Of a stretch of DNA of 64,000 nucleotides, positions 1,434-42,483 are shown in pieces; within the stretch, counting starts at the first letter, position 1; each line of letters starts with the position of its first letter. The stretch is from contig JACRNH010000002.1 of the NCBI GenBank assembly GCA_016219325.1, positions 3,862 through 67,861 of the forward strand, given 5' to 3'. The notes beneath the pieces are model-generated. The model was given only the letters and a program-made list of their open reading frames with translations, searched no databases and was not told the origin of the DNA. Source of the stretch: Candidatus Collierbacteria bacterium. Lineage in GTDB: Bacteria; Patescibacteriota; Microgenomatia; UBA1400; JACPES01. Both the position numbers and the translations under genes were made by a program.

Positions 1434-1806
1434 CACCAATATTTTTCTTAGATTTATTACTGGTGATAATCCAAAATTCAGTCCAGAGGCTAAGCAATTG
1501 TTTATCCGGGCCCAAAAAGGCGAATACAAGATTTATCTTGACGAATTGGTTTTTGGAGAAATAGTATGGACATTGCAAAGTTTTTATGATTATACGAGAG
1601 AAGAAATACGGAAAAATTTGGGAAATCTCTTAAACTCTAATTTTGTAGTTAATCCCCGAAAAAGGCTAATGAAAAAAGCTCTGGAAAAATACGTGATGAT
1701 GACTAACTTAAGCTTTTCAGATTGCTGGATTTATGAATTATCCAATGTTGAATCTATGAGATTAGAAACATTTGACAAAGGCCTCTCAAAACAGGTAAAA
1801 AATTAG
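1387..1806 (+). CDS. PIN-domain toxin (VapC-like)
   Basis: The RIFDTNIFL N-terminal acidic motif and overall PIN pattern. The true start is probably the internal Met at about 1396. Confidence 0.55.
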   Translation: MNFMPKNYRSRPRIFDTNIFLRFITGDNPKFSPEAKQLFIRAQKGEYKIYLDELVFGEIVWTLQSFYDYTREEIRKNLGNLLNSNFVVNPRKRLMKKALEKYVMMTNLSFSDCWIYELSNVESMRLETFDKGLSKQVKN

Positions 1807-3095
1807 CCCCACTCCTTAATTTCCTCCTGCGGGAGCTTGAGCTTTTTGGGAGTGGTTAGAAGTAAAAAGACAGAGATTAGCGTAACTCCCAATCCCAATA
1901 TCGCAAAAGTTTTTTGCTCTCCGAAAAATTGGGCCGTCAATCCGGCTAATACCGGGCCGATGATATAGGCGATACTAAAAGTGGAATTGGACAATCCGAT
2001 TAAATGCTGATCCTGTTTCCCCATTCTGGCGATGATGTCCGAATAGACGGCATCAGATAAAGGATAGGCGATGCTTAACATGATGCTTGAAATCAGAATG
2101 ATTAAAAGTATTCCGGCCAAACTATTGGTAAACGCCAGAAAGGTTAGTGTTAAACCAGCGATCAATGTCAGGATTTCGGCAATTTTCTTTTTTCCGGAAA
2201 AAATCTTCTTTTTGGCTAAGAATATTCCTAATGGTATTGATGGAAGGGAATATAAGGGGATAAGCATTCCGCCCCAAAAACTTTGTTGGGCTAATGTTTC
2301 GTTCCAAACGGTGCCAGTCGTCCAAAAAACCGAGTCAATGATCCCCATAGTCAGGCTTAAAACTAAAATTTGCCAAACATGTTTGATTAAAGAAGCCCAC
2401 TTTTTGTATTCCGCCATAAAATTAATATGATGAAGTTCAACTTCCAGTGGTCGGTCATGGTGTCGTCTGACTGCGAGGGCAATAAACAAAGCGATTAGCG
2501 TGAAAGATGAAGCAAAGATTATTAATTTTTGGTCGCCGGCGCTGGTTAGCCAGACCGACAGCATCGGACCTAAGAAATATGCGACGCTTTTGAACATTGT
2601 GATCCATCCCCAAGCCGAGGCATGGCCATACCTTGGGACATAAGTGGCTACCAATTGATGATTGGAAAAAGCGATCAGCTCATAATAAATGCCCCAAGCA
2701 GCCATTGCTCCCAAAAGAATGATTATGAACGGCATTTTGGTAGCTATTAATAATAATCCCGCGAAAGCAAAACTGGTCAAAATAGCTTGCATCAATAATT
2801 TTTTGACTGTCATATTTTTTAATATTTGAGGAAGCAGAAAATCGGCTCCAAGTCCTACCAGCGAAGAAAATCCCATGACCAGGCCCATTAAAAAAGCCGA
2901 GTTCATAGAATTCTGAACAAATGTCGGTACCCAATAGCTCAAAATCGCGTCGGACAGGCTGATAAAGAAAATAACTAAAGTGATGGAAGCGATCTTAAAC
3001 CAGAAGCTATCCGGCTGGGCGTGGATTAGTAATTTCCGCAACATAAGATTTATCTTAACATGAAATTTGAATGAGAATATAATCGGTCTAAACAT
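1803..3095 (-). CDS. MFS-type transporter
   Basis: 430 aa with about 12 predicted hydrophobic helices and a charged loop in the middle. Confidence 0.5.
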   Translation of the reverse strand: MFRPIIFSFKFHVKINLMLRKLLIHAQPDSFWFKIASITLVIFFISLSDAILSYWVPTFVQNSMNSAFLMGLVMGFSSLVGLGADFLLPQILKNMTVKKLLMQAILTSFAFAGLLLIATKMPFIIILLGAMAAWGIYYELIAFSNHQLVATYVPRYGHASAWGWITMFKSVAYFLGPMLSVWLTSAGDQKLIIFASSFTLIALFIALAVRRHHDRPLEVELHHINFMAEYKKWASLIKHVWQILVLSLTMGIIDSVFWTTGTVWNETLAQQSFWGGMLIPLYSLPSIPLGIFLAKKKIFSGKKKIAEILTLIAGLTLTFLAFTNSLAGILLIILISSIMLSIAYPLSDAVYSDIIARMGKQDQHLIGLSNSTFSIAYIIGPVLAGLTAQFFGEQKTFAILGLGVTLISVFLLLTTPKKLKLPQEEIKEWG

Positions 3096-32966: not shown

Positions 32967-33677
32967 ATGGCAGATAAAATTGTCCGACTATTTGGAGGGC
33001 ATAGAAATAAAGTATATAAGACTAACGGATTTGTAAAAGTGGTTTGGAAAGATGGTTTTAAGCGGCGGAAACAAATTCGCGAGGGAGTTTTGCTGGAGAA
33101 TTTTGTCGCCAGTCATACCGATATTAAAGCCCGGATTCTGGTTGATAAATCTAAACCAACTGAAGAAGAAAATGGAGAATTGGTGACATATTTTCATTAT
33201 GTTGACGGCGAAATCCGTTACCCGTGGAATTTGGAAGAAATTGCCTCAGTTGCAAGACTATTGGGAAAATTCCATCAAGCCATCAATTCTTCCTTACTTT
33301 TTACTCCTTACTCCATACTCCACTTAGATTTTGCCCGCGGTAACGTCCTTTTTCAATCAGGCTCTTCCAGCGCCATTGGCGTTATTGACTTTGAAACTAC
33401 TGCCAAAGGACCGGTGGAGCAAGAATTAGGAAGGAGCTTGAGTTTCATCCTCGTAGATACCCCCTGTGAAGTTTACGAAACTTCACAAGAGAAGTTTCGT
33501 AAACTGGAGCAACGGACAATGTCCTTCTTGACAAATTACGGTCTTCCCTATAGAAAAGAGAATGTCATAAAATGGACGAAGAAGTTATTAGCTGGAGACG
33601 ATTTCGGCAGTTTGAATAGTTTTCGTGATTCTGCGATACAATTTGCGATACAATTTATTAACTCATTAACCTATTAA
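32967..33677 (+). CDS. kinase-like phosphotransferase (APH/choline-kinase fold)
   Basis: HLDFARGNVLF and IDFETT resemble the catalytic-loop and DFG-like motifs. Contains a GAAGTTTACGAAACTTC palindrome and a 12-mer direct repeat in frame. Confidence 0.35.
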   Translation: MADKIVRLFGGHRNKVYKTNGFVKVVWKDGFKRRKQIREGVLLENFVASHTDIKARILVDKSKPTEEENGELVTYFHYVDGEIRYPWNLEEIASVARLLGKFHQAINSSLLFTPYSILHLDFARGNVLFQSGSSSAIGVIDFETTAKGPVEQELGRSLSFILVDTPCEVYETSQEKFRKLEQRTMSFLTNYGLPYRKENVIKWTKKLLAGDDFGSLNSFRDSAIQFAIQFINSLTY

Positions 33678-33692
33678 CCTATAATTCCGTTT

Positions 33693-34259
33693 ATGTCAAA
33701 TCACATCAAAGAAAAAATTCAGAATAAGATTGTTAGATTCGTAGATTTACCGAAATTACGGCGTAAATTTAACGATAAAAAAATAGTTTTTACCGCCGGA
33801 GGATTTGATCTTATTCATGTTGGCCATACCCGTTATTTGTCGGAGGCTAAAGTTTGCGGGGATATTTTAATTGTCGGAGTATCATCTAATGCCGAGATTA
33901 AAATGCTAAAAGGAGTTGACCGGCCGATCGTGGATGAGTCGGCCCGGGCGGAAATGATTGCTTCCCTAATGGTGGTCGATTATATTTTTATTATGCCGCC
34001 GATTAACGCGGTTGTATCGTCAATTGAAACTTTAAAACCCAATATTCTAATTGTTCCGGATGATGACTGGAATACCGGTTATAAAGACAGTCCGGAGGCT
34101 AAATCAATGTCCAAATTTGGCGGAGAAGTAGCTTTAGTAAAACGTCAGGGACCCTATATCAGCTCTTCCGGGATGATTGAGAAAGCCGCGGCGGTAATGA
34201 TAAGAACCAATTTTCAAAGATTTTTTACGCCGGAAATGATGAGGGAGTTAAAGGGATGA
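33693..34259 (+). CDS. cytidylyl/adenylyltransferase (HldE domain II / TagD-like)
   Basis: TAGGFDLIHVGHTRYLSEA is the (H/T)xGH nucleotidyltransferase motif. Confidence 0.55.
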   Translation: MSNHIKEKIQNKIVRFVDLPKLRRKFNDKKIVFTAGGFDLIHVGHTRYLSEAKVCGDILIVGVSSNAEIKMLKGVDRPIVDESARAEMIASLMVVDYIFIMPPINAVVSSIETLKPNILIVPDDDWNTGYKDSPEAKSMSKFGGEVALVKRQGPYISSSGMIEKAAAVMIRTNFQRFFTPEMMRELKG

Positions 34260-34825
34260 TGCCCCAGCAGTACGCTCGCCACTCCCGTGGCCTACGTCCA
34301 CGCGTCGTGGTGTCGCGACTGCGGGGTTCGGGCGTGCCAGCTGATTTTTCTGACGAAAAATCAGGGCCCGTCCGAAAAAGGCATGACCCCCGTACCGCCA
34401 GAACTTCCGCCGATTACTGGTATGATGAAGCATGGAAAAATGCCGGTAAGTGCGTCTTTTGTGACTTGCGGAAAAAATATATTATCGCCGAAAAAGACAA
34501 CGTGGTTTTAACCGTAAATCTTTATCAATATATTGACGGGCATCTGATGGTGATTCCCCGCCGTCACTTTGAGAGCTTGGACGAGACCAATCCAGCGGAA
34601 TGGAAAGCGATATTTTATTTGCTTAATCTTGGGGTAAAAAAACTTCAGGATAAATTAAAGATTAATGATATTTACATTTTAGACAGGCCATTGTCAGGGT
34701 TTAAAACCGGTAAGACTGTAGCCCATAGCCATTTCCATATCATTCCCTACAAACAGGAACTGGTTAGTTGGCATTATCAAGAGGTGTCTATTCATCCTGA
34801 GGATTTGGCGAAGAAACTTAGATAG
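34256..34825 (+). CDS. HIT-family hydrolase/transferase
   Basis: HSHFHIIP histidine triad plus CVFCDL. The N-terminal 60 aa is encoded by an unusually GC-rich segment. Confidence 0.5.
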   Translation: MMPQQYARHSRGLRPRVVVSRLRGSGVPADFSDEKSGPVRKRHDPRTARTSADYWYDEAWKNAGKCVFCDLRKKYIIAEKDNVVLTVNLYQYIDGHLMVIPRRHFESLDETNPAEWKAIFYLLNLGVKKLQDKLKINDIYILDRPLSGFKTGKTVAHSHFHIIPYKQELVSWHYQEVSIHPEDLAKKLR

Positions 34826-34905
34826 AAAATAATGAGCAGAAAATAATGAGTAATGTTATTTGATTTGATTCATTACTCTTTACTTCTTACTCATTACTCA
34901 TTATG
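34826..34905. repeat. AATGAGCAGAAAATAATGAGTAATG inverted-repeat element; its 3' arm supplies the dCMP deaminase start
   Basis: aaaataatgagcagaaaataatgagtaatg ... cattactctttacttcttactcattactcattATG. Confidence 0.75.
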
Positions 34906-35418
34906 AACGCTGATATTGAATTAATGCGCCGGGCAGCCAAAATTGCCGGCAACACCAAATGCTGGATTGGGATTGGATGCGTGATTGCCAAGGGCGGGAA
35001 AATTCTGGTCGAGACGTGGAATGAAACTTTGGAGGGGGAGGAGTATTGCCAGAAGTTCCGCAATCATAGAATCAATAAAGGCCCGGCCTTGCAGCACAAA
35101 GCCGGGCCTTATCATAACAACGAAGGGTGTATTCGACATGAGCTTAAACTATCCGGTGGCAAAGACGCGGAAAAAGTTTGCAGTATTCACGCCGAAGTCA
35201 ACGCCATCGCCAAGGCCGCTCGGCAGGGGATTGTAGTTTCCGGCGCCACCATTTACGTCACCAGCTTTCCGTGTTTAATATGCATGAGGGCCATAGTGGC
35301 CGCCGGAATTAAGAAAGTTGTGTATATGAATGATTTTTATAAACCGCACAACATAGAATTATTTGATAAGAACGGAGTTGAATTTAAACAAATTCCTGAA
35401 AATATAGTTTGGAAATAG
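34903..35418 (+). CDS. dCMP deaminase (CMP/dCMP deaminase zinc-binding family)
   Basis: CSIHAEVNAI and PCLICMRAI (the HAE and PCxxC motifs). A GGCC palindrome is inserted in frame. Confidence 0.65.
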   Translation: MNADIELMRRAAKIAGNTKCWIGIGCVIAKGGKILVETWNETLEGEEYCQKFRNHRINKGPALQHKAGPYHNNEGCIRHELKLSGGKDAEKVCSIHAEVNAIAKAARQGIVVSGATIYVTSFPCLICMRAIVAAGIKKVVYMNDFYKPHNIELFDKNGVEFKQIPENIVWK

Positions 35419-35497
35419 ATTTTGTTATCTTGTTATCTTGTTATCTTGTTACTAATCAAGATAACAATCTAGCAAGATAGCAAGCTAGCAATTATTC
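35419..35497. repeat. (TTGTTATC)3 tandem plus inverted partner (AAGATAACAA / AAGATAGCAAG)
   Basis: ttgttatcttgttatcttgttatcttgttactaatcaagataacaatctagcaagatagcaagctagcaa. Confidence 0.7.
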
Positions 35498-37045
35498 TTG
35501 AACTGGCCTAAATACTTTAAAGACCGTTTAATTCTTGGTAATCCTGATTCTGATTCCGCAATTGCAACGTTGTGGACGCCGATGAACGTGGTGGCAAAAA
35601 TGACGGATGTTTATAAGGTTTCTATCATTGGTCAACTCTATACAAAAAGGGGAATTAATTATTTGTTGAGAAATGTTTTATCTAACCCAAAGATAAAAAG
35701 AATTTTATTGGTTGGAGCAGATTTAATGGGATCTGGGGAAGAGCTTGCGCAATTAGCAGAGGACCGTCTTCTTCAGACTGATTGGTTGGATGAGAATATC
35801 TCAGTAGGCGGAATTAAAAAATTCTTTAAAAACGTTGAAATCGTCAATAAAATCGGTCCGGTTTCTCCGGAAAAAATTACTGATTTTATAAGTAAAAGTA
35901 AAAACTGTAAGCAATGGTCTAAGCCTCTGGAATTTCCGGAACAGGAAGCAGGTAGCAGCGGGGGATTGCCAAGCGAAGAGTCGGGATTTACCGTAAGGGG
36001 AGAGAAGGTCTGGCAGTCTTGGATTAGGTTGTTGCGTGAAATAATGAGATTTGGGCGTCCCAGCCCGATGATTCATCATTACGGAGCCGAGAGAACTACG
36101 GAAATATTTAATTTGACGGCAGTCATTTATGGTGAAAACCCTGAAAGCCCGGAGTTGCCAAAATGGCTTCCGTATTCCAAAGATGATATCAAAAAATATG
36201 CAGCCGGATTTTTATCTGCCTCACGCGGCGATGAGGCCTACACTTATGGCGAGCGAATTAAGGCGTATCCGTTAGAACTTTATAAAAAGGAATGGTTCAA
36301 TGATTCGAATCATTTAACTGACTCTGACAGCAAAAAGTTTGTCCGATCGCTAAAAAAAACGATAACGGATAATGGGCTAAATCAACAGGAATTGCTTGCT
36401 AAAAAACTCAAAAGTTTTCCGGAGAATAAGGGGGCTGTTGCAATTTTATGGGAACCGATTATTGACAATTTTGGGTTGAGGGAAATTTGGCGGACGCCGT
36501 GTTTGGTTTTAGTCCAAGCCGTAATCCGCGATAAGAAGTTATTTTTAACCGCTTATTTCAGAAGCAATGATATGTACGGAGGATGGTTTTTAAATGCTTT
36601 CGGATTATTGGCTTTTCAAAAAGAGTTGGCTGGAATGATAGGAAAGAATATTAAATTGGGGCCATTGACAACTATCTCCCACTCTGCCCATATTTACGAG
36701 TCGAGTTGGCAGTTAGCGGAAAAACTTGTTCATGACCATTGGATAGATGTTTCCTGCGAATGGGATCCGCGGGGCAATCTGCATTTTGAAACTGATGGAA
36801 AATTTATCGTGGTTAAACATTTGTCTCCGGACGGAATTTTCCTGGACGAATATCGCCAAAATGGTATGGAAGAAAAGGCGGCTAAAAGATTATGTTTTGC
36901 CTTGGAGTCAGCCGGATTATTTTCAACTGTCGGAAACGCCATGTATGCTGCCCGCCAAATTGAACGCGCCGAAACCGCGATAAAATTAGAATTACCTTTT
37001 ATTTCCGACGAACCTTTGAATTTCAAAAATAAGTATGCCAAATAA
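35498..37045 (+). CDS. thymidylate synthase (ThyA)-like protein with about 170-aa N-terminal extension
   Basis: TPCLVLVQAVIRDKKLFLTAYFRSNDMYGGWFLNAFGLLAFQKELAGMIGKNIKLGPLTTISHSAHIYESS parallels ThyA PCH...YQRSxD...HIYxNH. Confidence 0.45.
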   Translation: MNWPKYFKDRLILGNPDSDSAIATLWTPMNVVAKMTDVYKVSIIGQLYTKRGINYLLRNVLSNPKIKRILLVGADLMGSGEELAQLAEDRLLQTDWLDENISVGGIKKFFKNVEIVNKIGPVSPEKITDFISKSKNCKQWSKPLEFPEQEAGSSGGLPSEESGFTVRGEKVWQSWIRLLREIMRFGRPSPMIHHYGAERTTEIFNLTAVIYGENPESPELPKWLPYSKDDIKKYAAGFLSASRGDEAYTYGERIKAYPLELYKKEWFNDSNHLTDSDSKKFVRSLKKTITDNGLNQQELLAKKLKSFPENKGAVAILWEPIIDNFGLREIWRTPCLVLVQAVIRDKKLFLTAYFRSNDMYGGWFLNAFGLLAFQKELAGMIGKNIKLGPLTTISHSAHIYESSWQLAEKLVHDHWIDVSCEWDPRGNLHFETDGKFIVVKHLSPDGIFLDEYRQNGMEEKAAKRLCFALESAGLFSTVGNAMYAARQIERAETAIKLELPFISDEPLNFKNKYAK

Positions 37046-37685
37046 ATTAAGCTGGATTAATCAAATCAAATTTTTGTGTTTCGATCTCGATGGGACTTTG
37101 TTCAGAAATGTTGAGGCGGCCTGGAATGCTATTCAGCAGCAAATTTATAAGACCGTAATGAGGCAGAGGCATTTATCTCTGGAAGAGGCAGAAAATTATG
37201 TCCGTCAAAGATATTCGGTCTTGGGTAGTTCTACTAAAGTATTAAATGAATTGGGAATCGATGGCGAAGAGTTTTTTGTTAAGGCTTTCAAAAAGATAGA
37301 ATTAGATAAATTTATCTCTAAAGATGATGAAATTATTCAGCTGATATCAAATCTTAAGAAAAAATATAAAGTCGGGATGATTAGCAACACTCATCGGTCA
37401 ATCGCTAGAAAAAAATTAGAAGCGATTGGTTTATCGCTGAAAGAATTTAATCCGCTAATTACAACTTACGAACTAGATGTTTATAAGCCCGACCCGGCGC
37501 CATTCTTGAAGGCTTTGGAAATAGCCAGTTGCTCACCGGAAGAATCAGTGTATATTGGGGATAGCGTCGAAACTGATATCATGGGGGCAAAAGCCGTGGG
37601 GATGAAAACGATTTTGGTATGGGGTAAAAGCCCGGAAGCCGATCTATCAATCCCGACAATTTACGATCTGGCTAAATACTTTTGA
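37035..37685 (+). CDS. HAD-superfamily hydrolase
   Basis: FDLDGTL motif I; SNTHR; K...GDSVETD motifs III/IV. Confidence 0.55.
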   Translation: MPNKLSWINQIKFLCFDLDGTLFRNVEAAWNAIQQQIYKTVMRQRHLSLEEAENYVRQRYSVLGSSTKVLNELGIDGEEFFVKAFKKIELDKFISKDDEIIQLISNLKKKYKVGMISNTHRSIARKKLEAIGLSLKEFNPLITTYELDVYKPDPAPFLKALEIASCSPEESVYIGDSVETDIMGAKAVGMKTILVWGKSPEADLSIPTIYDLAKYF

Positions 37686-37706: not shown

Positions 37707-38267
37707 ATGGTTATCGGAACAAAGCAATTACTTCAATTGGTAAAAACTAAAAAATTAGTAGAAGGACTGGATAATCGAGAATTGACTAATCCCGAGGGGG
37801 CAGGTTTCGATCTTCGGATTGAAAAGTTATTGGCTATTCAGGGAGAATCCTTTTTAGGGATTACAGACAGGTCGACTGCAGACATGAAAGAAGTAGCTTC
37901 ATATAAAAAGACATCTGGGAAACAGAAGATATTTTCGATTAAGCCAAATGAATTCTATTTAGCGAAGACTATTGAGAATATAAATATGCCGGATAATTTA
38001 TTGGCAATCATAAAGCCCAGAACCACACTGTTTAGGTCGGGTATTTCGATGAGAACAGGATTTTGTCCTCCGGGTTATCACGGAGAATTATTTTTCGGAA
38101 TTTATAATGTTGGCAAATACTCTTTCAAAATTGAAATGGGAGCAAGATTTGCCCATATCGTTTTTTTTGAAATTGCAGGTGATTTGATTAGGGGATATGA
38201 AGGGCAATGGCAGGGTGGGCGATCTACGACAAAACAAGACACTCAAGGATTAGAAAAGCAAATTTAA
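37707..38267 (+). CDS. dCTP deaminase/dUTPase-family protein
   Basis: GFDLRIEK, PRTTLFRSGISM and PGYHGELFFGIYNVG parallel Dcd motifs. Confidence 0.5.
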   Translation: MVIGTKQLLQLVKTKKLVEGLDNRELTNPEGAGFDLRIEKLLAIQGESFLGITDRSTADMKEVASYKKTSGKQKIFSIKPNEFYLAKTIENINMPDNLLAIIKPRTTLFRSGISMRTGFCPPGYHGELFFGIYNVGKYSFKIEMGARFAHIVFFEIAGDLIRGYEGQWQGGRSTTKQDTQGLEKQI

Positions 38268-38653: not shown

Positions 38654-39352
38654 ATGCTGTCAAGCAAAAGTCAAAACGGAATTTTCATCGTCATCGAGGG
38701 CATCGACGGCTGCGGCAAAGCCACCCAGACGGAACTATTGAAAAATCGGCTGGAAAAATCCGGCCGCAAAATCCTGGTCGGCGACTTTCCCCGCTATTAT
38801 TCTTCGGAGTGGGGCAAACTGGTCGGCCGGTTTTTGACCGGTGAGTTCGGCAAATTGGACGAAGTTAATCCTCATCTGGCGGTTTTGACTTACATGATTG
38901 ACCAATATGTCTGGAGTCGGGACGCCGCTAGGCTATGGATTAAAAAAGGTGGAATTATTTTGTCCAATCGCTATTTCACTTCTAATGTTCATCAAATTGC
39001 CAAACTTAAAGGCCGTGCCCGCAAGAAATACCGTGACTGGCTGTGGCGGATGGGATACGAAGAATTAGGAATCTTGCGGCCTGATTTGGTTTTATTTCTT
39101 GACGTCCCGCCGAATATTTCCGCCAAACTCAATCGCCAAAAACTAGACAGAAAATATTTGAAAGGCAAAAAACAAGATATCGCCGAACGCCATAAACATC
39201 ATCAGCTCGCCGCCTATAAATCTTATCTTGACGAAGTCCGCCGCAACGACTGGTGGGCCAAAGTCAAATGCGTTTCCAAAACCAAACTTGACTCGCCGCA
39301 ACTGATTCATCAAAGGATATGGAAAAAAGTTTTGTATTATCTACTTGACTAA
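38654..39352 (+). CDS. tmk: thymidylate kinase-like
   Basis: IVIEGIDGCGKATQ P-loop and the dNMP-kinase layout. Confidence 0.55.
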   Translation: MLSSKSQNGIFIVIEGIDGCGKATQTELLKNRLEKSGRKILVGDFPRYYSSEWGKLVGRFLTGEFGKLDEVNPHLAVLTYMIDQYVWSRDAARLWIKKGGIILSNRYFTSNVHQIAKLKGRARKKYRDWLWRMGYEELGILRPDLVLFLDVPPNISAKLNRQKLDRKYLKGKKQDIAERHKHHQLAAYKSYLDEVRRNDWWAKVKCVSKTKLDSPQLIHQRIWKKVLYYLLD

Positions 39353-39464: not shown

Positions 39465-39965
39465 ATGAAGAATATAGTTGACAGGTTGGTGAATATTGGG
39501 AACATTAATTGCGATGAGTTGGCAGATATTTTGCCATTAGTAGTAAGAGTGATTCCTGAAATAAGCAGTGGATCCACAGAATTGGAATGTCAACCTCATA
39601 GCGGAGAACATTCCAGGTACGGTGTTTTTTTTCATGCCATAACGAACGAAAGTGATCTTGATAGATTTTCTGGAGATCGGCAGAAAATAGTTTTATCAAC
39701 TTCTGATTTGTTTGCTAATACAGGCATATCCGGAGAGCTAAAAAGTGCTGGGGTTTTAGTTTTCCCCAGTAATAAATATCAAAATGAACTATCTAGGGCT
39801 GGTGGAACAGGAGAAAGTCATTGTTTGGGGGAGCAGATTGGAGTAGATAGAAATATTCAAGAAGAGCATATTACAATTGATCTTGCCGGGGTGGCTTACG
39901 GCAGTTTTCCTATTTTAAGTATTCCTCAAAGGATTTTGATCCCGGTTGGTTTAATGAAAAGATAG
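39465..39965 (+). CDS. hypothetical protein
   Basis: 166-aa ORF. Confidence 0.3.
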   Translation: MKNIVDRLVNIGNINCDELADILPLVVRVIPEISSGSTELECQPHSGEHSRYGVFFHAITNESDLDRFSGDRQKIVLSTSDLFANTGISGELKSAGVLVFPSNKYQNELSRAGGTGESHCLGEQIGVDRNIQEEHITIDLAGVAYGSFPILSIPQRILIPVGLMKR

Positions 39966-40014: not shown

Positions 40015-40320
40015 ATGGATAAAGAGTCAATAAGATTGATTTTGGCTAATATTCCTCAACTTGCTGATATTGTCCAACTAAACGATGGGGAAATAGAAAA
40101 AGCAATTGCGATGTTAGACGGAATGGTTGTTGAGGAAAAGGGTCCCGGATTTTCAATAGAAGCTCCGGCATATCCTTTATCCGAGTTACCATATTATTTA
40201 GAAAAATCCGGAGCTGTAAGTGTTAAGTTCTCTTCAGAAATGCAGCTAACGGATTTTACCAGATTTGCCAGACCTGTGACGGAGGCAGAACTGACAAGGG
40301 CATTCGGAAAAACTTATTAA
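40015..40320 (+). CDS. hypothetical protein
   Basis: 101-aa ORF. Confidence 0.3.
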   Translation: MDKESIRLILANIPQLADIVQLNDGEIEKAIAMLDGMVVEEKGPGFSIEAPAYPLSELPYYLEKSGAVSVKFSSEMQLTDFTRFARPVTEAELTRAFGKTY

Positions 40321-40382: not shown

Positions 40383-41618
40383 GTGAAAATAAGTGATCTA
40401 ATTGCAAAAGAGCGTCGGCGCCAGCAGGAAACTTTAATGATGATTCCGTCGGAGAATTACACTTATCCCGAAGTTCGCCGCGCCGTCGGCTCGGTGCTGA
40501 TGCATAAATATTCCGAAGGATACGCCCACCGCAGATATTATCAGGGTAACGAAATTATCGATAAAATCGAAGATTTGGCAGTTGAGAACGCTAAAAAATT
40601 ATTTGGCGTTCCTTATGCCAACGTTCAGCCGTATTCCGGATCGCCGGCCAACGCCACGGTTTACTTCGCCCTGCTTCAGCCGGGAGATAAAATCATGGGT
40701 CTAAAATTATCCGGCGGCGGCCATCTGACTCACGGCCATCCCAACATCACTTTTTCAGGAAAATATTTTCAATCAACTCAATATGACGTCGAACCGGATG
40801 GCCGGATTGATTACGAAAAATTAGAAAAGTTAGCCAGGACTGAAAATCCGAAATTAATAGTGGCCGGAACTACCGCTTATCCGCGGATTTTAGACTGGAA
40901 AAAATTTGCCAAAATAGCCGATAGCGTCGGGGCGATTTTGATGGCGGATATTGCGCATATAGCCGGTTTGGTGGCGGGCGGTTCTCATCCTTCTCCGGTT
41001 TCATATGTTCATATTGTGACAACGACTACCCATAAAACTTTAAGAGGTCCGCGGGGAGCGATGATCATGATAACTGAAAAAGGTTTAAAACTGGACGAAA
41101 AAATGGGGGAGAAAATTGATAAGGCGATTTTCCCCGGATTGCAAGGTGGGCCGCATAATAATACCACTGCCGGAATTGCGATAACATTGGAAAAATCCAT
41201 GGGTAAAACTTTCGCATCGTATGCCAAGGCAATAGTTTCTAATGCCAAAGAGTTGGCTGATGAATTATTAAAATATGGATTTAATTTGGCGACAGGCGGA
41301 ACGGACAATCATTTAATGGTGGTTGATGTCCGGCCGTTTGGAATTGACGGCAAAACATTCGCGATTGCTTTAGAAAAAGCCGGAATTATAGTTAATTTTA
41401 ACACTATTCCTCATGATCCCAATCCTCCGTTTCGCCCCAGCGGTATCCGCTTGGGGACTCCGGCGGTAACTGCCAGAGGAATGGGAAAACCACAGATGAA
41501 GCAAATAGGAAAGTGGATTTTAGAAGTGGCCAAAAATTATTCTAATGAAAAAAAACTCAAGTCGATAAAGCTCCAAGTAAAGTCTTTGTGCAAAAAATTT
41601 CCGGTGGATTTGGCATAG
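40383..41618 (+). CDS. glyA: serine hydroxymethyltransferase
   Basis: GTG start; SHMT signature throughout, including the PLP-lysine region VTTTTHKTLRGPRG. Confidence 0.85.
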   Translation: MKISDLIAKERRRQQETLMMIPSENYTYPEVRRAVGSVLMHKYSEGYAHRRYYQGNEIIDKIEDLAVENAKKLFGVPYANVQPYSGSPANATVYFALLQPGDKIMGLKLSGGGHLTHGHPNITFSGKYFQSTQYDVEPDGRIDYEKLEKLARTENPKLIVAGTTAYPRILDWKKFAKIADSVGAILMADIAHIAGLVAGGSHPSPVSYVHIVTTTTHKTLRGPRGAMIMITEKGLKLDEKMGEKIDKAIFPGLQGGPHNNTTAGIAITLEKSMGKTFASYAKAIVSNAKELADELLKYGFNLATGGTDNHLMVVDVRPFGIDGKTFAIALEKAGIIVNFNTIPHDPNPPFRPSGIRLGTPAVTARGMGKPQMKQIGKWILEVAKNYSNEKKLKSIKLQVKSLCKKFPVDLA

Positions 41619-41619
41619 C

Positions 41620-42483
41620 ATGTTTATTATCGATGGTAAAAAATTAGCAGCGGAAAGAGAACAGCTTCTAAAAATTGAAGTCCAAAAATTAACCAAAAAG
41701 ATTGGCAGAAGACCAAGATTAGTGGCAGTCGAATTGTCCGATGACGAGGGAGGTAGGTTATATTTGAAATTAAAAAAGGCGGCAGCGGAGAGGGTGGGGA
41801 TAGAATTTGATGTTGTAAAAAGGCCTGGCCTTGCATGGCAAGGCCAGGCCTTATCAGACACTGACGGTATCTTCATTCAGCATCCTCGGGGTTACAATAA
41901 GCAAAAATGGCAGGAGCTGGTTGATCAAATTCCACCGGAAAAAGATGTTGATTGTTTGACCAGTGAAAATCTCCGATTGATAAAAGAAGGAAATCCAAGG
42001 TTTTTGCCGGCGACAGTGAAAGCCGTTTTATATTCTCTGGAACACGTTTTTCGTCTGGAAAGGCCTGGCCTTGCTTGGCAAGGCCAGGCCTTATCTGATG
42101 CTCTACGCGGGAAGAAAATCGTTATTCTGGGGCGAAGCCCCATTCTTGGATTACCGCTATTTTGGTGGTTGAAAAGCCTTGGCGTTAATGTGACGCTCTT
42201 TCATTCTCAATCGACGATTAGCGATTTACGATTAGCGGTTAGCGAGGCTGATATTTTAATTTCTTCCGTCGGTAAGCCCGGATTAGTCACCGGCAATATG
42301 GTTAAGAAAGGGGCAATTGTAATTGATTGCGGTTCGCCTTTGGGAGACGTAGTTTTCAGTGAAGTAGCTCCCAAAACCTCAGCTATAACCCCTGTTCCCG
42401 GCGGCGTTGGGCCGCTGACAGTGGTCAGTCTAATGGAAAATGTGGTACAATCCATAAATAACGCAGGCCGGGAAAGCTCCTGA
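41620..42483 (+). CDS. folD: bifunctional methylene-THF dehydrogenase/cyclohydrolase
   Basis: FolD layout with a GxGxxVG-like Rossmann motif. Two identical in-frame GGCC palindrome insertions (PGLAWQGQALSD, twice). Confidence 0.8.
   Translation: MFIIDGKKLAAEREQLLKIEVQKLTKKIGRRPRLVAVELSDDEGGRLYLKLKKAAAERVGIEFDVVKRPGLAWQGQALSDTDGIFIQHPRGYNKQKWQELVDQIPPEKDVDCLTSENLRLIKEGNPRFLPATVKAVLYSLEHVFRLERPGLAWQGQALSDALRGKKIVILGRSPILGLPLFWWLKSLGVNVTLFHSQSTISDLRLAVSEADILISSVGKPGLVTGNMVKKGAIVIDCGSPLGDVVFSEVAPKTSAITPVPGGVGPLTVVSLMENVVQSINNAGRESS
41821..41853. repeat. GGCC palindrome AGGCCTGGCCTTGCATGGCAAGGCCAGGCCTTA (copy 1 in folD)
   Basis: Perfect hairpin-forming sequence inside the coding frame. Confidence 0.85.
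42061..42093. repeat. GGCC palindrome (copy 2 in folD)
   Basis: aggcctggccttgcttggcaaggccaggcctta. Confidence 0.85.

Follow-up and report, generated by a model that had tools for sequence, protein, structure and literature searches.

What is the enzyme encoded by a 515-codon open reading frame (ORF) that carries thymidylate synthase (TS) motifs within a cluster of pyrimidine deoxynucleoside triphosphate (dNTP) genes of a Candidatus Collierbacteria bacterium, and on which nucleotide does it act? The ORF occupies positions 35498–37045 of the forward strand of a 64,000-nucleotide stretch of contig JACRNH010000002.1, which is referred to here as the window. A first-pass annotation, made from the sequence alone, had described a divergent enzyme of the ThyA fold, extended by a further N-terminal domain and lying in a pyrimidine-dNTP cluster, and this description was borne out. 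Its fallback suggestion, that the gene may simply belong to the dTTP pathway, is the best-supported reading. We conclude, with a probability of about 0.72, that the protein (here called the TS fusion) is the housekeeping enzyme that converts deoxyuridine monophosphate (dUMP) to thymidine monophosphate (dTMP) in this member of the Candidate Phyla Radiation (CPR), and that its three-domain form is standard in the radiation.

The start codon is the TTG at 35498, the first past an in-frame TAG at 35486; the product begins MNWPKYF and its relatives begin at the same point. The protein is 100% identical to the NCBI 'hypothetical protein' HZB78_00505 of a Candidatus Collierbacteria bacterium, and some of its relatives are already called 'thymidylate synthase' by NCBI or JGI. 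That PGAP labels this copy 'hypothetical protein' and close relatives 'thymidylate synthase' is a caution about annotation. Judged by its profile matches, the product is made up of three domains, not two. An MtrA-like Rossmann domain (aa 1–150; 35498–35947; PF04208 and NF002126) is followed by a minimal ThyA core of the methanogen type (aa ~160–418; 35975–36751; TIGR03283 and PF00303) and by a DUF4346 domain (aa ~419–515; 36752–37045; PF14251), which opens with the motif C-x-W-D-P-R-G-N; all are on the forward strand. The linker between the first two (aa ~151–159; 35948–35974) is variable in the family alignment. This alignment (A1) of 43 family members was the basis of both the family profile and an AlphaFold2 model, which has a mean predicted local distance difference test score (pLDDT) of 90.1 and a predicted template modelling score (pTM) of 0.67. 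The pLDDT drops to 52 over residues 151–160 and to below 50 over residues 153–155, that is, in the linker. The first-pass annotation had assigned the C-terminal 300 aa to the ThyA fold. The motifs on which it relied (TPCL, YFRSND and HIYESS) are all found; the extent was overestimated, as the core ends at about residue 415 and residues 423–504 are DUF4346. The N-terminal part was correctly said to have no counterpart in ThyA, over ~160 aa.

The best-scoring family for the central domain is TIGR03283, the methanogen-type ThyA, with residues 165–405 aligning end to end to profile positions 2–199 of 201 (E 3.7e-37). PF00303 is matched at 35.6 bits (gathering score 24.3) by residues 249–411 on profile positions 93–222 of 266. 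The family profile finds B. subtilis ThyA at E 6e-12, and the core is ~21% identical to canonical ThyA across the aligned part. In Foldseek searches with the model, TS chains and MilA were retrieved at probability 1.0, with a target-normalised TM-score of up to 0.66 to the TS chains, while the highest target-normalised TM-score, 0.75, was to AfhB of phage HY126. Based on these comparisons, the core is a minimal, methanogen-type ThyA. With members of that family such as the protein of locus L092 it shares the Asn177 equivalent as well as the motifs YTYGER, PCL and FRS-D, and neither has the W80/W83 segment or the canonical tail at the C-terminus. It differs from them in its two flanking domains, in an insertion of ~40 aa (residues 256–295) and in its host, which is a bacterium with tetrahydrofolate (THF) enzymes and not a methanogen.

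Active-site residues were mapped with HMMER, by aligning the query to ThyA of B. subtilis and to MilA, and a hidden Markov model (HMM) of the family TS core to E. coli ThyA. The E. coli sequence used has the expected length of 264 aa. Conservation was scored in 86 family sequences, namely that of the window and those of 85 loci, a few of which are duplicates. The catalytic cysteine, Cys335 (E. coli C146; codon 36500–36502, motif TPCL), Arg355 (R166) and Tyr250 (Y94) are each invariant (86/86). Also aligned are Lys311 with R126 (R or K in 85/86), Gln340 with Q151, Ser356 with S167, and Asp358 with D169 (D in 74/86, A in 9, S in 3 and never Asn). The 3'-OH contacts H207 and Y209 correspond to His398 (H in 51/86) and Tyr400 (Y in 79/86). 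The fold and the equivalents of Cys, R166, S167, D169, N177, Y94, H207 and Y209 are thereby common to the TS fusion and the canonical enzymes of E. coli, B. subtilis and L. casei. H147, the residue after the cysteine, is replaced by Leu336, and the observation of PCL instead of PCH made in the first-pass annotation was accurate. By alignment it is a family trait, since the residue is L, M, I or V in 86/86 sequences and never His; B. subtilis ThyA itself has PCV.

Which base the enzyme recognises depends on the residue equivalent to Asn177. It had been placed in the HIY-x-N/D motif and read as Ser, an odd residue that would leave the choice between dUMP and dCMP open. This was a mis-mapping: in E. 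coli Asn177 sits in RSCDVFLGLPFN, 11 residues past Arg166 and outside the HLY-x-N motif. In the TS fusion the corresponding segment is RSNDMYGGWFLN, running from Arg355 to Asn366 (36560–36595), and Asn366 (codon 36593–36595), the uracil-specificity residue, lies 11 residues past Arg355 and aligns to Asn177 of both E. coli and B. subtilis ThyA. The residues read as the specificity position, Ser402/403, correspond to E. coli S210/N211 (Ser402 being aligned with N211). The position is Asn in 86/86 family sequences; in the CMP-acting MilA an Asp is aligned with Asn366. Enzymes of the TS superfamily that are specific for dCMP likewise carry Asp there (PMC13326640). The predicted uracil specificity is canonical, and the doubt between dUMP and dCMP falls away with the supposed serine. 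The appearance of canonical active-site residues after proper alignment was an outcome that the first-pass annotation had itself named as speaking against its proposal.

The genomic context is that of a cell. The window is a segment of a cellular CPR chromosome, with genes for MreB, MreC, PBP2, DprA, TopA, Def, Fmt, S2, EF-Ts, RRF and a Mur ligase. The four flanking genes from the dCMP deaminase to Tmk had been correctly recognised at first pass, and all neighbours listed here are on the forward strand. Upstream is a dCMP deaminase (34903–35418; PF00383, E 6e-19), the most conserved neighbour. Downstream are a HAD-family phosphatase like pyrimidine 5'-nucleotidases (37035–37685), the start of which overlaps the stop codon of the TS fusion and which is found at 1/86 loci, a protein of the dCTP deaminase/dUTPase family (37707–38267; PF22769, E 7e-25; TIGR02274, 91.5 bits against a cut-off of 92.8) and a protein like dTMP kinase, Tmk (38654–39352; PF02223, E 9e-16; NF005923, E 1e-27). 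These are followed by GlyA (40383–41618; SHMT, 495 bits) and FolD (41620–42483; both THF_DHG_CYH domains), an arrangement that recurs at loci L003 and L006. Two ORFs between the Tmk and GlyA genes, at 39465–39965 (166 aa) and 40015–40320 (101 aa), also on the forward strand, have no Pfam or NCBIfam match. On long CPR contigs the recurrent order is MreC, PBP2, DprA, TopA, a group of APH, nucleotidyltransferase and HIT genes, dCMP deaminase, TS fusion, kinases, SHMT, FolD, S2 and EF-Ts. Near the TS fusion, dCMP deaminase occurs at 64/86 loci (62 upstream, 34 of these on the same strand with their end no more than 0.2 kb away), a nucleotidyltransferase-like gene at 53/86, HIT at 50/86, Tmk at 12/86, FolD at 10/86 and GlyA at 9/86. 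One relative of 733 aa (P0232) is a four-domain protein, with the MtrA-like, TS and DUF4346 domains followed by a dCMP deaminase fused at the C-terminus. Such a fusion is a Rosetta-stone link and, with the invariant Asn, makes dUMP the logical choice of substrate.

The combination of a deaminase, a TS homologue, a nucleotidase and a kinase does resemble the dNTP-modification modules of phages, and a three-domain relative with 26% identity is encoded by a viral contig (L087). The first-pass annotation had drawn the analogy, according to which the protein would be a cytosine-directed or substrate-ambiguous enzyme of a phage-like pyrimidine hypermodification set. The analogy was not supported and the explanation is hardly tenable, being largely refuted by the Asn in 86/86 sequences where dCMP-specific enzymes have Asp, by the adjacent (and once fused) dCMP deaminase, which favours dUMP over dCMP as substrate, by the cellular and not phage nature of the window, and by the lack of a glycosyl- or amino-transferase module linked to the gene.

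The three-domain architecture is widespread. A word-indexed search returned at least 335 clusters, and most of the 120 matches listed carry PF04208, PF00303 and PF14251 together. In a scan of GTDB the TS fusion was found in 117 species with titles almost all of Patescibacteria, the lineages including Collierbacteria, WWE3, Shapirobacteria, Dojkabacteria, Falkowbacteria, Paceibacterota, Wolfebacteria, Saccharibacteria and others. Because these 117 GTDB species and at least 335 clusters share the architecture, fusion of the N-terminal domain to ThyA is common in the phylum, the second outcome that had been named at first pass as counting against an exceptional enzyme. An exhaustive search of representatives with the N-domain alone gave 1,171 clusters (50% identity) at E <= 1e-3, of which 111 were at E <= 1e-30. 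Ten matches were examined for architecture among the top 150 listed of the 1,171 clusters; all ten were TS fusions or fragments of them, and none was a free-standing module of MtrA-like and DUF4346 domains. The matches of unusual length that were examined likewise contain the three-domain core. The relative on the 156-kb viral contig (L087 4884–6443) is the only full three-domain relative in the viral collection, and adjoins an intein-containing ribonucleotide reductase and an integrase-family gene.

Several observations weigh against an ordinary dUMP-to-dTMP synthase. The TIGR03283 match, at 127.8 bits, falls short of the equivalog cut-off (174.55), and positions 1–92 and 223–266 of the PF00303 profile have no match in the protein. 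Between the helix at residues 228–238 and Tyr250 there are only ~11 residues and no helix, where E. coli has 28 residues, W80 and W83 among them, so that the folate-stacking segment (I79/W80/W83) is absent, and the canonical closing tail at the C-terminus is gone, DUF4346 following residue ~418 in its place. Canonical TS relies on W80 and the C-terminus both to position the folate and to shield the exocyclic-methylene intermediate. The R126'/R127' pair, which is donated by the partner subunit in the canonical homodimer, is Lys311/Gly312 here and is not kept as a pair, the R127 equivalent being mostly Gly or Ala in the family (73/86). An equivalent of Glu58 was not identified in the HMM alignment, which stops short of that region; the invariant Tyr234, which by motif matching only lies four residues before Phe238-Leu in the register of E58 before F62-L63, may hold the E58 register. 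The L143 position (Cys minus 3) is Arg332, in sequence register only and with no superposition, and among the 86 sequences K (33), R (28), S (11), N (6), H (3), T (3) and Q (2) occur there, and never a hydrophobic or acidic residue. Minimal TS genes of 200–290 aa also stand alone on viral and cellular contigs. Finally, no biochemical characterisation of the TS fusion family or of methanogen-type ThyA was found in the literature searched, and experimental characterisation of archaeal thymidylate synthases is scarce (PMC9931769). The DUF4346 domain, the loss of the W80/W83 loop and of the tail, and the changes of R127 to Gly and of L143 to Arg had all been overlooked in the first-pass annotation; with the change of H147 to Leu and the extra N-terminal domain, they are among the differences from canonical ThyA.

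The L143 position bears on a further explanation, in which the protein belongs to those members of the TS superfamily that modify C5 without methylating it, either as a dUMP hydroxymethylase (a 5-hmdUMP synthase) or as some other such enzyme. A side chain at L143 that is bulky and hydrophobic keeps water out and prevents hydroxymethylation, and hydroxymethylases have Asp or Glu there (PMC13326640). In the TS fusion family the residue is never bulky and hydrophobic, the solvent-shielding W80 loop and C-terminal tail are absent, and the best match of the single sequence in the PDB is MilA (E 5e-6). This explanation is nevertheless distinctly improbable: the position is basic or polar, compared with Asp or Glu in known hydroxymethylases; ThyA ranks above MilA when the family profile is used; the gene is chromosomal, occurs phylum-wide and sits among housekeeping genes near Tmk, GlyA and FolD; and there is no second TS nearby to provide dTMP. 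The 5-hydroxy-dCMP synthases have Asn at the D169 position and Asp at the N177 position (PMC13326640), and the aspartate retained at D169 in the TS fusion indicates that it is not of that type. With MilA, the T4 dCMP hydroxymethylase and the phage 5-hydroxy-dCMP synthases the TS fusion shares the fold and the catalytic Cys; it differs from them in having Asn, Arg and Asp at the N177, L143 and D169 positions where these enzymes have Asp, Asp/Glu, or Asn, respectively (PMC13326640).

Among the stand-alone homologues, those of loci L088–L098 (viral), L099 and L101 are 204–286 aa long and have, besides the Asn177 equivalent, the motifs YTYGER, PPCL and FRSWD. At Cys minus 3, which is the L143 position, the majority carry Asp and look hydroxymethylase-like under the published rule; viruses of archaea or bacteria may use them as dUMP hydroxymethylases. 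The 204-aa protein of the viral contig L092 scores 185.2 bits against TIGR03283 and passes the cut-off. In the three stand-alone contexts examined there was no MtrA or DUF4346 neighbour, which argues that the core does not in general need the accessory domains; they are apparently a lineage-specific elaboration.

The N-terminal domain is related to MtrA, subunit A of tetrahydromethanopterin S-methyltransferase, with a match to NF002126 at E 7e-12. PF04208 is matched by residues 2–148 at 23.1 bits, short of the gathering score of 25, and in ten scanned relatives at 34–61 bits, all above it. The family profile finds the MtrA structures (methyl-H4MPT:coenzyme M methyltransferase; PDB IDs 5laa, 5l8x and 8q3v) at E 5e-17 to 3e-13, the best being 5laa, and the homology extends over ~145 residues. 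Residues invariant in the family are concentrated in the two loops that hold the ligand in MtrA, and the conserved loops of the TS fusion are GQLYTKRG (aa 45–52) and GADLMGSG (aa 73–80). The two have in common a Gly, an Asn-Pro motif and, in the pocket for the nucleotide tail, the Thr/Gly/Asn; the MtrA residues in contact with the nucleotide tail of cobalamin (Thr53, Gly57 and Asn64) correspond to Thr49, Gly52 and Asn59, of which Gly52 and Asn59 are invariant.

Homology to a corrinoid-binding protein (E 5e-17) raises the possibility that the domain binds a corrinoid and that the protein carries out cobalamin-mediated methyl transfer. In MtrA, His84 ligates the cobalt and Glu54 is hydrogen-bonded to His84 (PMC4915002). 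His84 corresponds either to Ser79 (Ser in 85/86) or to a gap, in a two-residue insertion missing from the family, and in place of Glu54 there is Lys50 (85/86 sequences have Lys). The MtrA meander motif GAIPF(Y/F)xEN is not conserved either, which together makes corrinoid-mediated transfer very improbable. The domain also differs from MtrA in having no membrane anchor and in its fusion partner, an enzyme of nucleotide metabolism. As the His84 and Glu54 ligands are missing, binding of cobalamin by the N-domain was rejected, and we tentatively regard the MtrA-like domain as something other than an MtrA-type corrinoid protein.

The top Foldseek match of the model by E-value (3.6e-13) was the protozoan bifunctional dihydrofolate reductase (DHFR)-TS of T. 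cruzi (3irn), which has an N-terminal alpha/beta domain followed by TS and is of similar length. The N-domain of the TS fusion is MtrA-like, however, and DHFR-TS has no third domain; the rmsd (root-mean-square deviation) of the full-length superposition is 24 Å and the TM-score 0.32. An assignment of the N-domain as DHFR was rejected on these values and on the lack of any Pfam or NCBIfam DHFR match. Neither E. coli nor L. casei DHFR was matched significantly by the TS-core HMM (aa 160–418).

The C-terminal domain was matched to PF14251 (PterinBD-DUF4346) over residues 423–504 and profile positions 2–86 of 86, at 27.3 bits against a gathering score of 29.6. Eight scanned relatives scored 34.7–71.2 bits, and the match is above gathering in seven of ten relatives and in the L087 protein. 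The Pfam name derives from an association with pterin-binding proteins. In the AlphaFold2 model the domain (pLDDT 89) consists of three strands and then two helices. No PDB entry matched it in Foldseek at E <= 0.001, the best being at E 0.08, and the DUF4346 profile had no match among PDB sequences. The literature searched held no mention of DUF4346/PF14251, MJ0757 or a fusion of MtrA with thymidylate synthase.

Whether the enzyme depends on DHFR is a related question. No FolA, ThyX or second ThyA was found in the window (tblastn, and Pfam on all large ORFs), nor within 10 kb at the 86 loci (tblastn, and phmmer on 4,057 ORF segments covering 1.39 Mb), apart from a RibD_C-like 'DHFR family' ORF 2 kb upstream at locus L020 alone, which is not conserved. 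In a survey of 4,581 CPR genomes folA was present in 54.8%, glyA in 81.3% and folD in 79.7% (PMC11974145). The literature searched yielded nothing of relevance on ThyX in the CPR. These folA data leave room for a DHFR-independent mechanism, but do not show one.

A thymidylate synthase with a different cofactor logic would accommodate much of the above. In such an enzyme the accessory domains would hold a pterin, nucleotide or reductant, the one-carbon donor would be other than free methylene-THF or no dihydrofolate would be released, and DHFR would be dispensable. The canonical folate loop and C-terminal tail are missing; the invariant residues of the N-domain lie in the two corrinoid-holding loops of MtrA, with nucleotide-tail residues kept as Thr49, Gly52 and Asn59; and Pfam links DUF4346 by name to pterin-binding proteins. 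DHFR and ThyX are lacking in the window and in the 1.39 Mb around 86 relatives, the L020 ORF aside, and folA is less frequent than glyA in CPR genomes. On the other side, a bound cofactor would be conjectural, the lack of folA within 10 kb is weak evidence, and the conserved N-domain residues may be structural. The adjacent GlyA and FolD suggest ordinary THF chemistry, the stand-alone minimal cores do without the accessory domains, and the poor superposition on DHFR-TS shows no real likeness to DHFR. We consider a different cofactor logic unlikely and favour an ordinary housekeeping dUMP-to-dTMP synthase.

Acting as such a synthase, the TS fusion would use Cys335 to attack C6 of dUMP, a one-carbon unit would be transferred to C5 and dTMP would be the product. 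The adjacent dCMP deaminase and DCD/dUTPase-like protein would supply the dUMP, the one-carbon unit would come from 5,10-methylene-THF produced by the adjacent GlyA and FolD, and the dTMP would be consumed by the adjacent Tmk-like kinase. More tentatively, the MtrA-like and DUF4346 domains would probably provide the missing surfaces for cofactor binding or active-site closure, or would replace the dimer partner.

Other features of the locus were noted. An APH-like kinase, a nucleotidyltransferase like RfaE domain II and a HIT protein precede the dCMP deaminase and the TS fusion across CPR genomes, as in the window (32967–34825) and at L003 (7212–9515) and L006 (7179–9416), and in some genomes the trio is a single fusion of ~750 aa; it may activate a sugar or alcohol phosphate. 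In the 80-bp gap between the dCMP deaminase and the TS fusion (35416–35487), the octamer TTGTTATC is repeated in tandem 3.5 times (35422–35451), and pairing of the octamers with a downstream complement yields a long hairpin (-31.1 kcal/mol, z -6.6). This element occurs only once in the window; a related Collierbacteria genome has the same arrangement ahead of its TS gene (L007 9920–9995). An Rfam scan of the hairpin gave no family and only chance matches to miRNAs; it could be a terminator, an attenuator or a protein-binding site.

Within folD there are two in-frame copies (41819–41858 and 42059–42098) of a 40-nt GC-rich palindrome, AAAGGCCTGGCCTTGC(A/T)TGGCAAGGCCAGGCCTTATC(A/T)GA, each encoding RPGLAWQGQALSD within FolD. 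No further copy was found in the window or in 98 loci, and the palindrome looks like a small palindromic element inserted into coding sequence. An MFS transporter gene on the reverse strand (1803–3095) has a weak match to the BT1 folate-biopterin transporters (E 1e-4, just under the gathering score) and is a candidate folate importer in an organism that has GlyA, FolD and Fmt.

The source of P0057 (L003/L004, contigs of 846 kb and 275 kb) is labelled 'Candidatus Bathyarchaeia archaeon' by NCBI. This label is probably wrong, since the locus has MreC, MreD, PBP2, DprA and a bacterial TopA in CPR order. Titles naming 'Clostridia', 'Gammaproteobacteria' and 'Pacearchaeota' in the GTDB scan are open to the same kind of doubt.

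As the gene was originally flagged, the TS fusion is mostly ordinary, and the interest that remains is in its three-domain architecture and stripped-down active site. One accessory domain is an MtrA homologue without the cobalamin ligands and the other, DUF4346, is without a solved structural relative. It is unlikely, on present evidence, that they form an integral cofactor-handling module and that the predominant thymidylate synthase of the CPR is a mechanistically distinct class; if that were true, the fusion of a cofactor module would hint at the unknown cosubstrate of methanogen-type ThyA. The requirement for DHFR matters here because folA is reported in only ~55% of CPR genomes. A large bacterial radiation appears to make its dTMP with a three-domain enzyme that lacks the folate-closing elements of the textbook ThyA.

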